A stretch of 48,609 bases of DNA from Ignavibacteriota bacterium (GTDB taxonomy: Bacteria > Bacteroidota > Ignavibacteria > UBA10030 > SZUA-254): NCBI GenBank assembly GCA_016209795.1, contig JACQVI010000141.1, positions 1 to 48,609 of the forward strand, written 5' to 3'. Below the pieces are notes generated by a model that was not told where the DNA came from, ran no database searches, and saw only the letters and a program-made list of their open reading frames with translations. Both the position numbers and the translations under genes were made by a program. This document shows, piece after piece, positions 30,536 to 34,171 of this stretch (its first letter is position 1; each line of letters starts with the position of its first letter).

Positions 30536-30905
30536 TCAGATTGCCTTTCTTGAGACGACTCTTAATGGATTCTTTGTTGATTGCGTATAGACGTTGAAAT
30601 GACGGCAATAAAGATACAAAAAGTTTTTATGAGACTCAACCCACTGGTCTCGTGATGGATAGTTCTTTTTGCAAAAACCAATATTATTTAGTAGTTTTAC
30701 AAGCGGTTCCCACGAAACACAAATAGGGTGGTTTCTCCCAAAGAAGCATAGCAGAATGGCTTTTAATGTACTCTTGTGGGAGAAGCTTTCTGCACTGTCA
30801 CCTACCAAGTTTTTCAAGTAGAGTGAAGTAGAGAGTTAGACAATACCGCAGTATATGATTCTGGGATTTATCAAAAGAACAAAGAGTAACTACATTCACT
30901 ATCCA

Positions 30906-32483
30906 ATGTTTAGAAAATTGATTTTTCCATTGATATTCGATGCACTCATTGGGGTTGCACGATTGGCGTATGGACAAATCCAGCCAACTAATCCGGACAG
31001 CGCTCTTCAGATTATTCTTAGCCATTTGGAAGGAACATCTCTTTCTTTGACGGACGCTATGAAGTATGGATTGCAGAACGCGACATCAGTCCGCACTGCT
31101 GAGGCTACATATCTTGCAGCCAGAGGCGCCGCACGAAGAGAAGCAGGAGGTTTCGATCCTGAGTTGTTTTTCGCGCTGAACCATCTCGACCAGGAGCTAC
31201 CGACAGCCTCTTTCTTTTCCGGTGCACCAGTGTTGAGCACAACCCAAACCATCACCAGTGGTGGATTACGGATGGAGCTGCCAATCGGAACGAATATTGA
31301 AGCGTCGCTCAGCACCCTCCGATTAAAGACCAACTCTGCGTTTGCATTTTTGAATCCACAGTACACTGCATTTGGAAGCTTAAGTTTTCGACAACCGCTG
31401 TTAGGTGGACTCCATATCTCCGCCCGCAAACAAGCCAGAAAAGCTGATCAGGAAATGGAAGCTGCTAAAGCACGATACGATCAAGAAGTCCTTGCCATCA
31501 GCACGGAAGCTGAGCATGGGTATTGGGATCTCTACGCTGTCGAACGCGACTACGCCGTGCAAAAGCTTACACGCGACCGCGCCGAAGCGTTCCTGAGAGA
31601 AACAGAGTTGCGAGCCAAGACAGGATTGATCGGTCCAAATCAAGTTGCTAATGCTCGTACTTTTCTGGCGGAACAAGAAATTCTCTTACTCGACCGAGAA
31701 GAACAATTGGATCGACTTTCGGATCAGCTTGCCTCTTTGATTGGAACCAGACCCGACGCAGGACAACGTCGTTTCATCACAATTGACGATCCACCTGCTG
31801 AGTTTCCTCTTGAGGATGTCGATGCACTGGTACAACAAGCAATTCAAAACAATCTTGACCTTCAGGCAGCCAAGGCAGACGTTGAAGCAAAGCGGACATT
31901 ATCAAGTGCAGCATTCTGGGAAGCTCTGCCGAGCGTCAATCTTGTTGGCTCGCTTGGAGGAAGCGGTCTATTAGGAACACTGCAGGATGTTTCCTTTGGA
32001 GATACTACGTACCGTGCGCCATCTGATCGTCAAGGGCAGTTCGGAGATGTAATAAGTCAGGCTGTCAAGCGTGAGTTTCCATCGTGGAGTGTAGGTGTGG
32101 AAGTCAATATCCCAATTGCACTGCGAAGTGGATTAGGTGAAAAAGAACGACTGGAGGCAGAGGTGATGATGGCGGAACAGCAATATATTCAACAGGCAAG
32201 GATATTGGAAGAACGGGCACGCTCAGCGTACCGAGAGCTGTCGCATGGAAAGCAGCGATTGATTGCCGCTAGAGAAGGAGTTGATGCAGCCCAGGAGCAA
32301 GTACGCATCGGGTTGATTGAGTTTCAAAACGGGCTTTCAACGGCATTTGAACTTGTACGCCTCGGTGCGGACTTTGCTGTTGCTCAGCAACGATACTCGC
32401 AAGCATTAGTCCGTGGTGCCAAAGCCGCCGCTACGTTGAGGCAGTTAACTTCTGGCGAGTACAAGAGTGGTGCGGTACGCTGA
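30906..32483 (+). CDS. TolC-family outer membrane efflux protein
   Basis: LSLTDAMKYGL, QPLLGG, YWDL, OEP repeats, FQNGLST; start at 30855 or 30906. Confidence 0.85.
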   Translation: MFRKLIFPLIFDALIGVARLAYGQIQPTNPDSALQIILSHLEGTSLSLTDAMKYGLQNATSVRTAEATYLAARGAARREAGGFDPELFFALNHLDQELPTASFFSGAPVLSTTQTITSGGLRMELPIGTNIEASLSTLRLKTNSAFAFLNPQYTAFGSLSFRQPLLGGLHISARKQARKADQEMEAAKARYDQEVLAISTEAEHGYWDLYAVERDYAVQKLTRDRAEAFLRETELRAKTGLIGPNQVANARTFLAEQEILLLDREEQLDRLSDQLASLIGTRPDAGQRRFITIDDPPAEFPLEDVDALVQQAIQNNLDLQAAKADVEAKRTLSSAAFWEALPSVNLVGSLGGSGLLGTLQDVSFGDTTYRAPSDRQGQFGDVISQAVKREFPSWSVGVEVNIPIALRSGLGEKERLEAEVMMAEQQYIQQARILEERARSAYRELSHGKQRLIAAREGVDAAQEQVRIGLIEFQNGLSTAFELVRLGADFAVAQQRYSQALVRGAKAAATLRQLTSGEYKSGAVR

Positions 32484-32512
32484 CAGGGGTGATAGTAAAG
32501 ATTGTTTATTTT

Positions 32513-32565
32513 GAACTCACCCTAAATCCCTCTCTTAGAAAGAGAGGGACGGCAGGGATGAGTTC
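32513..32565 (+). repeat. Nested palindromic repeat, family B, left copy
   Basis: GAACTCACCCT..TCCCTCTCTT-AGA-AAGAGAGGGA..AGGGATGAGTTC. Confidence 0.9.
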
Positions 32566-32583
32566 GATGGAAAGAGTTCAACA

Positions 32584-32979
32584 ATGCACAAACAAACAAT
32601 AGAAGCTGCCAAGCAGCGGTGTCGTGAACTGCACAAGCATCAAACACCAAGTGAGAGACATCTCTGGCAATCAGTTCGGAATCGGAGTTTTCTGGGGAAG
32701 AAATTCAATCGTCAGTTTCCGATCTTCTTCACGAACCCCTCCGGTACGGAAGGTTTTTACATCGCTGACTTCTATTGTCATGAACATCGATTGGTGGTCG
32801 AACTTGACGGCAAGAGCCATTATTTTCAGCAGGAGTACGACGCAGAAAGGTCAGATATCCTTCACGGAATGGGACTCCAAGTTGTGAGATTTCGCAACGA
32901 TGAATTGGCAGCGAACTTTGATGATGTGTTGCAGCGCTTAAAGAAAACGCTTGGAACTCACCCTCATTCCCTCTCTTAG
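32584..32979 (+). CDS. DUF559 / Vsr-like PD-(D/E)xK endonuclease domain protein
   Basis: TPSERHLW, KFNRQFPI, YIADFYC, VVELDGKSH, YDAERSDIL, VVRFRN. Confidence 0.9.
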   Translation: MHKQTIEAAKQRCRELHKHQTPSERHLWQSVRNRSFLGKKFNRQFPIFFTNPSGTEGFYIADFYCHEHRLVVELDGKSHYFQQEYDAERSDILHGMGLQVVRFRNDELAANFDDVLQRLKKTLGTHPHSLS

Positions 32980-33036
32980 GAAGAGAGGGACTTTTCCTCT
33001 TCTCTTTTCAAGAGAAGGGGTCAGGGGATGAGTTCC
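32953..33036 (+). repeat. Nested palindromic repeat, family B, right copy (two internal hairpins)
   Basis: GGAACTCACCCT..TCCCTCTCTT-AGG-AAGAGAGGGA..CTCTTCTCTT-TTC-AAGAGAAGGG..GGGGATGAGTTCC. Confidence 0.9.
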
Positions 33037-33073
33037 ACAAAGTGATGTCACGAAAACAGAAAGGTACAAACTC

Positions 33074-34171
33074 ATGGTCATAATGAAAACAGTAGCTCGA
33101 GGATTATTTCTCTCGATACTTTATATCTCAATTGCTTTGTTACTGATCGACTGTGGAGAAAACAAAGGCAGCGGTGGGTTCTCGATGCCACCCATGCCTG
33201 TGGAGGTCAGTCAGGTCAAATTCCGAAAGGTTGTCGATAAGTTTGAAGCAGTCGGCACGATCGAAGCAATTGAGGCGATTACCGTTGTTGCCGAGATTGA
33301 CGGCGCAGTGAAAGCTCTCCCCTTCAACGAGGGTGGTTTTATCAAACAAGGCGAAATCATCGCACAGCTCGATGATGCCCAGCTTGCAGCGGAAGTTGCG
33401 CGTGCGGAAGCCTTGCGGTCACAGAGCCAAGTAACGTACGATCGGGTGAAAGCGATTGTTGATCAAGGTGCTGGTGCTCCTCAAGATCTCGATGATGCCG
33501 CCGCAGCGCTGAAGGTCGCTCAAGCGAACCTCGATCTTGCCAAAGCACGCTTCGCAAAAACGAGGATTATCGCTCCCTTCGATGGGATTATTGGTGCTCG
33601 ACGAGTTAGTGTGGGAACTTTCATGCGAACGGGGCAGTCAGTAACAGATCTTGCGAACATCGATGAAATCAGAGTAACGTTTGCAGCCCCGGAGCGATTT
33701 CTCTCACAGCTTACTCGGGGTGCATCTGTTGCCGTTTCGACAACGGCATTTCCGGGGTATGAATTACAAGGAAAGATCATCGCAATCGAACCCATCATCG
33801 ATCCCACGACCCGAAGCACCCGTGTGGTTGCACGTGTTCAGAATCCGGAGCGAAAATTTCGTCCGGGAATGTCTGCCAATATCTCAGCCGTCTTGAGCGA
33901 GAGACCTAACGCCTTGACAATACCGAACGAAGCTGTCTTTGGCAGTGGAAACCAGATGTTCGTGTTTATCGTAAAGCCAGATAGCACAGTGGCTCGAGTT
34001 CCTCTCACACTCGGAACTCGACTTGCTGATGTGGTGGAAGTGCTGGATGGTTTGCAGCAAGGAATGACTGTAGTTCGGGCAGGACATCAAAAGCTGTTCG
34101 ATGGTGGAAAGGTAATGCCAATGACAAGCCAGACAGACATGCAATCAACAGAGACTAAGACTGGAGGGTAA
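33074..34171 (+). CDS. RND efflux periplasmic adaptor subunit
   Basis: EAVGTIEA, AEIDGAV, IIAPFDGIIG, FRPGMS, IPNEAV. Confidence 0.92.
   Translation: MVIMKTVARGLFLSILYISIALLLIDCGENKGSGGFSMPPMPVEVSQVKFRKVVDKFEAVGTIEAIEAITVVAEIDGAVKALPFNEGGFIKQGEIIAQLDDAQLAAEVARAEALRSQSQVTYDRVKAIVDQGAGAPQDLDDAAAALKVAQANLDLAKARFAKTRIIAPFDGIIGARRVSVGTFMRTGQSVTDLANIDEIRVTFAAPERFLSQLTRGASVAVSTTAFPGYELQGKIIAIEPIIDPTTRSTRVVARVQNPERKFRPGMSANISAVLSERPNALTIPNEAVFGSGNQMFVFIVKPDSTVARVPLTLGTRLADVVEVLDGLQQGMTVVRAGHQKLFDGGKVMPMTSQTDMQSTETKTGG

Follow-up and report, generated by a model that had tools for sequence, protein, structure and literature searches.

In this article we discuss a small block of DNA that sits inside an efflux operon of an Ignavibacteriota bacterium, on contig JACQVI010000141.1 of assembly GCA_016209795.1, a stretch of 48,609 nucleotides (nt) that we call the window (it is contig C115 of our genome G000, a 3.39-Mb assembly in 263 contigs). 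The block is 523 nt long and consists of a gene for a DUF559 protein set between two copies of a nested hairpin repeat. We lean, with a confidence somewhat above even, towards seeing it as a selfish cassette in which a nuclease resembling Vsr and the homing endonuclease I-Bth0305I would be the cognate partner of its own repeats, cutting them and moving with them, in a manner analogous to that of the REP-associated tyrosine transposases (RAYTs) and the palindromes known as REPs. A selfish nuclease–repeat unit had already been proposed in an earlier reading of this DNA (the original prediction, below), and that proposal has held up as regards the insertion itself, the solo repeats, the enrichment of repeats beside the gene and their co-variation with protein clade, while recognition of the repeats by the protein, and spread by that route, are things that we infer. 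The most telling observation is that each DUF559 protein clade is paired with its own repeat type, and that this pairing is kept across phyla.

DUF559 genes and their repeats

This genome has six DUF559 loci according to Pfam, and four of those outside the window show the association in various guises. A copy on contig C8, which is 64% identical to the window protein, has an A-type element (the window's type) lying over its 3' end, and a broken copy on C242 carries a 3' terminal hairpin as well as an arm on its 5' side; a more distant copy on C169 (34% identical) has copies of another family, GAATCCCC...GGGGATTC, on both sides in one and the same orientation, and the copy on C187 has another hairpin on its 5' side. 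Across 44 Ignavibacteriales genomes the gene is decidedly patchy, being present in 25 of them at zero to eight copies each, in 80 places, of which 70 were analysed after the exclusion of ten short or weak matches. The association was tested on the 67 loci that have at least 150 nt of flank on both sides, and in 62 of these a pyrimidine/purine hairpin lies within 250 nt of the DUF559 core (on both sides in 31). Expressed as density, this amounts to 0.76 hairpins per 250 nt on the 5' side and 1.11 on the 3' side, against 0.0165 in the distal flanks (9 in 136,239 nt), which is an enrichment of about 50-fold, and it is just the kind of enrichment that the original prediction had proposed looking for.

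The same proposal had asked whether repeat type follows the protein tree, and indeed it does. On a tree of 66 DUF559 cores, from which the repeat-encoded tails were left out, the class of arm changes 18 times, where 300 shuffles give 39.1 changes on average and never fewer than 33, and the clade that holds the window protein (15 rows, SH-aLRT 97) has class A in 14 of its 15 members. A label-free test, in which the 9-mers shared between flanks were set against protein distance over 2133 of 2145 pairs (12 orthologous pairs having been removed), gave a Spearman coefficient of -0.36, a value reached in none of 1000 permutations.

We then have the view beyond the order, which covers clade A. Six clade-A sequences, used with one genome per species, gave 454 confirmed relatives, and the best 80 of these 454 were analysed; they come from Ignavibacteria, Calditrichia, Zixibacteria, many Bacteroidota, Cyanobacteriota, Cloacimonadota and others. 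The arm 8-mer ACTCAYCC/GGRTGAGT was found within 250 nt in 62 of these best 80 loci, including 40 of the 55 that are not labelled Ignavibacteria, and on both sides in 41; its rate in distal DNA is 0.057 per 500 nt, and only three of 51 loci of other DUF559 clades have it. Since the clade-A proteins of this survey are only about 50% identical, a distance at which neutral DNA would keep nothing, the arm repeat is under selection that is tied to clade A.

An insertion in an efflux operon

The operon is of a familiar make, with tolC-like, MFP (membrane fusion protein) and RND transporter genes all pointing the same way, and the cassette reads in that direction too. The original prediction had placed a DUF559 open reading frame of 131 amino acids (aa) between the first two of these genes, with two same-orientation copies of one element flanking it, and both statements are confirmed, the former by the reading frame and its Pfam match and the latter by direct reading of the sequence and a repeat finder. 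It had also suggested a comparison of related tolC–MFP junctions in search of an empty site, and here the answer is clear: in ten of ten relatives, of the same family and order, the DUF559 gene is missing from the junction, so that it is not syntenic in all relatives, and nine of the ten have short spacers. DNA just past the right repeat (...AAAACAGAAAGGTACAAA..ATGG) aligns to the spacer of the empty sites, and the nearest relative (G016, TolC 78% identical) has a degenerate, arm-like remnant of about 40 nt at the insertion site. The block is an insertion into the tolC–MFP spacer of an Ignavibacteriales efflux operon. As an aside, the remnant in the G016 spacer (L002) has arm-like ends together with a TCGACTCGTC module that is also found inside two A-type elements of the window genome (on C108 and C250).

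Among the features expected of miniature inverted-repeat elements or insertion sequences, the block has inverted arms, a weak candidate for a target-site duplication (TSD) and no linked transposase. The candidate, GTGATAGT against GTGATGT, lies a few bases outside the arms and measures 5–7 nt, which is too short to trust and may be chance; it was looked for after a 7-nt duplication had turned up at a solo insertion in a relative. The stretch is also present, as contigs, in four groundwater metagenome runs of a single study, one contig spanning 31972–33345 without a difference. No empty-site or circle form was seen among these contigs, and the matches listed include no RNA run. One metagenome joint, of position 32550 to 33006 with 17 other letters between, was considered as an excision product and rejected, since it comes from a separate solo element, one that has two hairpins and other flanking DNA.

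Repeats with a triplex-type anatomy

Both copies of the repeat open with GAACTCACCC and close with GGGATGAGTTC, and both contain a perfect 10-nt hairpin, TCCCTCTCTT-3 nt-AAGAGAGGGA, with arms at 32527–32536/32540–32549 on the left and at 32968–32977/32981–32990 on the right; they are 90% identical over 41 nt, and their starts are separated by 441 nt. A second hairpin (32996–33006/33010–33020, 91% paired) is present in the right copy, and, just as the original prediction had described, this copy encodes the end of the gene, whose last eight codons (...GTHPHSLS*) fall inside it, the TAG stop lying in the loop of its first hairpin. When folded as single-stranded DNA, both copies form nested structures on both strands (z -5.5 to -7.4), and none of 200 shuffles is as stable.

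A closer look at the arms changes how these elements might be read. Taken in reverse and scored by the triplex rule (G to G, A to A/T), the purine arm of the second hairpin in the right copy agrees with the right arm at every one of 11 positions, and the left arm in the window is the complement of an equivalent mirror block on the opposite strand. Across the genome, the mirror score is 7/8 or better for 91 of 196 arms and 8/8 for 61, compared with 53 and 15 in a non-reversed control and 3 and 1 for random 25-mers. Because the arms mirror the purine stem, the seeming outer inverted repeat makes more sense as a pair of mirror third-strand segments, with one on each strand; of the earlier claim that the end of the element pairs back with its start, the pairing itself stands (10 nt, 90%) and its reading as an inverted repeat gives way. 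By sequence, then, the window repeats have the layout of an intrastrand triplex, namely a pyrimidine stem, a loop, a purine stem, a loop and a G/T(A) mirror block, and a triplex may form.

The repeats across the genome

A count of solo against gene-flanking copies had been suggested at the outset, and it gives 11 full A-type elements in this genome, three beside DUF559 genes and eight solo, plus partial copies, while a reversed-pattern control finds no A-type element in any of the 44 genomes. The repeats, first described as the gene's own, do flank it in a type that goes with its clade, but they are not confined to it, being a dispersed family and mostly solo. Taken more widely, arm-nested pyrimidine/purine hairpins occur at about 70 loci of the genome, in families that include ACTCAYCC, AATCCCC, CCCTCACCC and ACCTCACC besides others (a letter-permutation control for hairpins, 89 against 98, was discarded and not used, as it counts A/T-rich hairpins). 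Elements of the GAATCCCC family are also found one after another, separated by conserved spacers some 60 nt long, on C169 (2544–3283), C19 (8858–9057) and C246 (2111–2171), and C246 stops just past what resembles the 5' leader of the DUF559 gene on C169, so that another copy may have been lost at the contig end.

What sits beside the repeats is instructive. The only small gene family that recurs there in this genome is DUF559, and neither an HUH nor any other transposase adjoins the repeats, in keeping with the original claim of a unit that has no transposase. One might of course wonder whether these are ordinary REPs mobilised by RAYT/IS200-like (Y1 HUH) transposases of the same genome, with the proximity to DUF559 a secondary matter, and there are indeed nine Pfam matches to Y1_Tnp (on contigs C108, C107, C56, C164, C153, C250, C204 and C237), one of them a weak fragment 306 nt from an A-type element. 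The other eight, however, lack these repeats at their flanks (four share a contig with no such repeat, and for the other four the nearest is 3.4–4.5 kb away), and the clade-specific pairing with DUF559 would be left unexplained, so that we hold this account to be very improbable. Several of the Y1_Tnp matches are open frames of 150–250 aa.

A Vsr-like protein

DUF559 is a very widespread family whose function is uncharacterised. The window protein is a strong member of it (PF04480, 112.3 bits against a cut-off of 20.6, E 1.4e-32, over model positions 3–107 of 109), and a Pfam scan adds only a sub-threshold REase match, with no NUMOD or helix-turn-helix (HTH) N-terminal region; apart from two N-terminal helices, there is no added DNA-binding domain. 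The closest sequence with a solved structure is PDB 3HRL, itself uncharacterised (E 2.7e-12), and the sequence match to I-Bth0305I is marginal (E 0.12). A structure model (pLDDT 87.8) takes us further, as Foldseek pairs it with 3HRL (E 1.2e-6, TM 0.78 by target), with the catalytic domain of I-Bth0305I (3R3P; E 1e-3, TM 0.70 by target) and with Vsr (1CW0; TM 0.64 by query, E 0.2). Judged from this model, the protein has a Vsr-like PD-(D/E)xK fold and is predicted to be a nuclease, and the nearest characterised fold is the catalytic domain of I-Bth0305I.

Across 24 family sequences the core residues D54, E65, G68, H71, D78 and R94 do not vary, the acidic ones and the histidine being candidates for catalysis, and D67 is replaced by E in one clade. 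For Vsr, the pertinent passage of PMC3239194 names D51, H64, H69 and D97. The clade with E-L-E-G in place of the E-x-D-G of all others is one whose repeats are BoxC-like (CCCTCACCC; loci L044, L020, L038, L017 and L047). The protein scores 69 bits against the NCBIfam YcjD equivalog, under the cut-off of 218, and so is not a YcjD orthologue.

The cassette in its relatives

Related cassettes offer some glimpses of what such units do over time. Among 95 clade-A loci, a strictly defined full element is present at the 3' side in 25, at the 5' side in 22 and on both sides in 12, and in all 12 of the latter the two elements share one orientation; the 3' arm starts at a median of 19 nt past the core, and in 13 of the 25 loci the stop codon lies within the element. 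At one orthologous cassette within a single genus, the 3' two-hairpin element has been reverse-complemented in place, as seen when L067 (G018) and L072 (G015) are compared with L031 (G050) and L032 (G051); the alignment has 84 identical columns when one side is reverse-complemented and 69 when both are read on the same strand. A flip of this kind suggests activity at the arms and would speak for a selfish cassette. At L031, L032 and L072 the direct repeat runs past the element, with a promoter-like TTGACT, 17 nt, TAATAT on either side of the gene, and this extended repeat resembles what integration of a circle by a single crossover would leave.

Genomes G010 and G049, which are congeners, provide filled and empty sites. 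A solo unit in G010, about 305 nt long and centred on an A-type element, sits exactly at a TGATG stop/start overlap (L164 1789–2093, C13); the site is intact in G049 (L173, C1 at about 149470), and a 7-nt imperfect duplication marks the insertion. Its core of about 200 nt recurs elsewhere in G049 at 81–92% identity, and the solo mobile unit may therefore exceed the nested palindrome. Decay can be seen as well, since a cassette in G049 (L179/L180, C1 at about 435000–435365), compared with L050 of G010, retains the upstream C-type element and the first nine DUF559 codons, the rest having been replaced by an element of another family. None of the filled/empty comparisons between these two genomes gave a clean TSD for a whole cassette: one site is rearranged, one has unalignable spacers and one is the decayed case.

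Cassette, passenger or host gene

How would a selfish cassette work? We imagine that what the nuclease recognises is either the arms typical of its clade or the folded hairpin or triplex, and that it nicks or cuts there; a cut solo repeat would then be repaired from a gene-bearing copy, with the repeats as homology arms, and such repair would copy the gene in between two full repeats, in a homing-like manner. The same breaks might drive the spread, inversion and decay of solo repeats.

The most serious competitor is the view that DUF559 is a passenger. On this account the repeats spread alone, by means of some other trans-acting enzyme, replication slippage or recombination, and the gene is trapped cargo that co-varies with them through inheritance as a unit; indeed, the co-variation is equally expected if gene and repeats simply descend together. 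Solo elements far outnumber gene-linked ones (besides the eight of 11 here, G010 has 19 elements and a single clade-A gene), and A-type solos occur in genomes that have no clade-A gene, with nine in G021 and eight in G049, where the remaining DUF559 fragments are of clade D. Likewise, the window genome has C- and D-type solos with no matching DUF559 clade in the assembly. A strict dependence of solo repeats on the cognate gene is therefore unsupported, although many DUF559 loci lie at contig ends and some genes may be unassembled. The 305-nt solo unit with its duplication at a stop/start overlap is, moreover, a transposition-like footprint. Set against the passenger view are the standing of DUF559 as the one gene family that recurs beside the repeats, the lack of any adjoining transposase, and an arm motif that stays fixed across phyla while the proteins diverge to about 50% identity, a mark of selection on a repeat tied to its clade. 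In addition, several clades coexist in one genome, each with its own repeat family, and one shared host factor would not give such one-to-one pairing. We regard the passenger view as unlikely on balance, though it deserves to be taken seriously.

A role for the host is another thought, with DUF559 as a Vsr-like repair or restriction-type nuclease and the palindromes as regulatory, RNA-stabilising (REP-like) or insulating terminator sequences. It could draw on a clade-C cassette that four genera have in common, intact at one site, where the core is 83–87% identical and the left flank 81–85%, a flank-like divergence that points to long vertical retention and not to turnover. It could draw too on the tendency of the gene to be co-directional with its upstream neighbour (106 of 133 loci; for the downstream neighbour, 90 of 125) and on the fact that most copies are open, with internal stops in only five of 70 loci. 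Yet a host function sits poorly with the patchy distribution described above, with a gene that is absent from every orthologous junction and placed in the middle of an operon, and with repeats that are mostly away from any DUF559 gene. Searches for a regulatory or defence role were equally unhelpful to it: Rfam has no family matching the repeats (only miRNA hairpins far below threshold, E at least 0.03), no T run follows the window arms (a scan still picks out one structure in the right copy as terminator-like, namely its first hairpin together with a tail formed by the C/T-rich stem of its second), and PADLOC gives a marginal match only (E 0.005). We consider this explanation improbable.

The selfish cassette remains the reading that we favour, and a good deal weighs against it. 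The gene-free solos, the joint-descent argument and the old clade-C cassette all do so, and at the clade-C site six relatives, congeners included, have neither the cassette nor a solo repeat (one spacer there is just 3 nt). Only the 25 and 22 loci mentioned earlier, out of 95, have a strict full element at the 3' and 5' sides. As to the statistics, the arm classes were set after the data had been seen, the upstream zone of the label-free test takes in some N-terminal coding sequence, and the related genomes in the co-variation figures are not independent of one another. Each step of the mechanism is one that we infer, and a simple homing model would have the target destroyed by the insertion, which does not agree with a gene whose two flanking repeats are both complete.

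Relation to known systems

The hallmark of a RAYT gene is that it is flanked by its own REPs. RAYTs with their cognate palindromes are the subject of PMC3479197 and PMC3686654. The parallel is attractive: in both systems a lone gene for a small enzyme has copies of a palindromic repeat on its flanks, further copies of which are scattered solo through the genome, and different enzyme clades are paired with different repeat families. The differences are just as plain. In place of an HUH Y1 transposase, the enzyme here is a Vsr-like PD-(D/E)xK protein; each repeat combines pyrimidine/purine hairpins and mirror-repeat arms where a REP is a stem-loop with a GTAG head, and the flanking copies are direct where those of REP–RAYT units are inverted.

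The EDxHD homing endonucleases, for which the relevant part of PMC3239194 gives I-Bth0305I as prototype (PDB 3R3P), offer a second parallel, in the fold of the catalytic domain and in the idea of a selfish nuclease that promotes the copying of its own gene. The window protein differs in having just 131 aa and no N-terminal NUMOD/HTH region, there is no intron or intein, and its gene lies between two complete repeats, so the target is not split.

The repeats themselves have a history. To judge from their sequence, they are of the already described BoxC/PIT/TMECO triplex-motif kind, repeats that are catalogued in Escherichia coli and in hundreds of other genomes. Holder et al. (2015, PMC4666352), whose survey cites two studies from 2000 and 2002, describe TMECO as a C-rich and a G-rich stem with a loop between them, followed after another loop by a second G-rich block, with a possible intrastrand purine-motif triplex, the strict pattern being a CCCTCTCCC-type 9-nt stem, N3-6, GGGNGAGGG, N3 and GGGNGAGGG. 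Our elements likewise combine a C-rich stem, a G-rich stem and a G/T-rich block that mirrors the purine stem, and are intergenic, dispersed and sometimes in inverted pairs. One family of this genome, ACCCTCACCC...GGGTGAGGGT, is near the TMECO consensus, whereas the window family has stems of the CCCTCTCTT and CCCTTCTCTT types and ACTCAYCC arms; with AAGAGAGGGA and AAGAGAAGGGG as the actual window stems and GGGATGAGTT as arm, it departs from the strict TMECO pattern and falls outside it. A further difference from TMECO as reported is that a gene family, DUF559, is tied to the repeats here. Holder et al. state, where they address the matter, that mobility functions were never found near TMECO (PMC4666352), and neither 'endonuclease' nor 'ycjD' occurs in the text of that paper. 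Our literature search found no paper that links DUF559 to these repeats, the supplementary tables of PMC4666352 (on genes flanking TMECO) being outside its reach.

E. coli brings us back to the protein. YcjD of E. coli and NGO0050 of Neisseria (PDB 3HRL) belong to the same Pfam family, both being functionally uncharacterised, and in E. coli K-12 the stop of ycjD overlaps a degenerate pyrimidine/purine hairpin (L043 5030–5850, the ycjD to fabI spacer), followed by a partial duplicate of the gene's last 45 nt or so and then, about 190 nt downstream, by a canonical TMECO. From its sequence we count this as a further instance of DUF559–repeat pairing. According to PMC12817139 (2026), strains that do not have the eefRABCD RND operon carry ycjD at the site where the operon lies in others.

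It is tempting to go one step further, and to suppose that nucleases of the DUF559/YcjD type are the long-missing partner enzymes of BoxC/PIT/TMECO-type repeats, each clade cutting its own folded repeat and thereby driving its spread, inversion and loss, along with homing-like copying of the gene. This is a tentative idea, to which we give rather less than an even chance. If it were true, it would make a third repeat–enzyme partnership, beside those of insertion sequences with miniature inverted-repeat elements and of REPs with RAYTs, and would account for the genomic instability reported at TMECO sites. What is new here is the tie, clade by clade, between DUF559 and the repeats, the repeat kind being known already. 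Such clade-specific, cross-phylum pairing gives both partners a testable role and names a candidate structure-specific nuclease, and E. coli K-12, with ycjD and its neighbouring repeats, makes a simple system for the test. Annotators should also take note, as cassettes of this sort split operons and extend reading frames into repeats.

A resemblance to integron cassettes was also considered. The core sites of attC have the form RYYYAAC/GTTRRRY. The reading frame with an imperfect 3' palindrome and a bulged base recalls such a cassette; by eye, though, the arms have no core sites, and the cassettes are dispersed and not arrayed, so this reading was rejected.

Features of the locus

Table 1. Positions of the cassette, its candidate duplications and the neighbouring operon genes in the window
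Feature	Position	Strand	Evidence
tolC-like outer membrane efflux protein gene (542 aa), host gene upstream	30855..32483	+	Open reading frame; Pfam OEP E 7.8e-39; orthologues 61–78% identical in 10 relatives
Weak candidate TSD, left copy (GTGATAGT); may be chance	32489..32496		Partner GTGATGT at 33042–33048; 5 contiguous identical bases only
Left repeat copy, 53 nt, with a single pyrimidine/purine hairpin (32527–32549) between arms GAACTCACCC and GGGATGAGTTC	32513..32565	+	Sequence; repeat finder; DNA fold -17.8 kcal/mol, z -6.0
DUF559 gene (131 aa, P0001), predicted Vsr-like PD-(D/E)xK nuclease	32584..32979	+	Open reading frame; Pfam; PDB 3HRL; model; conserved core residues
Right repeat copy, 82 nt: same arms, two hairpins (32968–32990, 32996–33020), orientation as left copy	32954..33035	+	Sequence; repeat finder; DNA fold -26 kcal/mol, z -5.5
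Weak candidate TSD, right copy (GTGATGT)	33042..33048		Read from sequence; partner GTGATAGT at 32489–32496
Membrane fusion protein (MFP) gene, 365 aa, host gene downstream	33074..34171	+	Pfam HlyD_D23 E 6.4e-27; orthologues in relatives 0–150 nt past tolC
RND transporter gene (AcrB-type), 1045 aa	34171..37308	+	Pfam ACR_tran, 1056 bits

Lastly, we have been struck by where such genes lie in their assemblies: about a dozen of the 80 family matches fall within some 650 nt of a contig start, several stretches are cut by a contig end, and cassettes of this kind seem to sit at contig ends.

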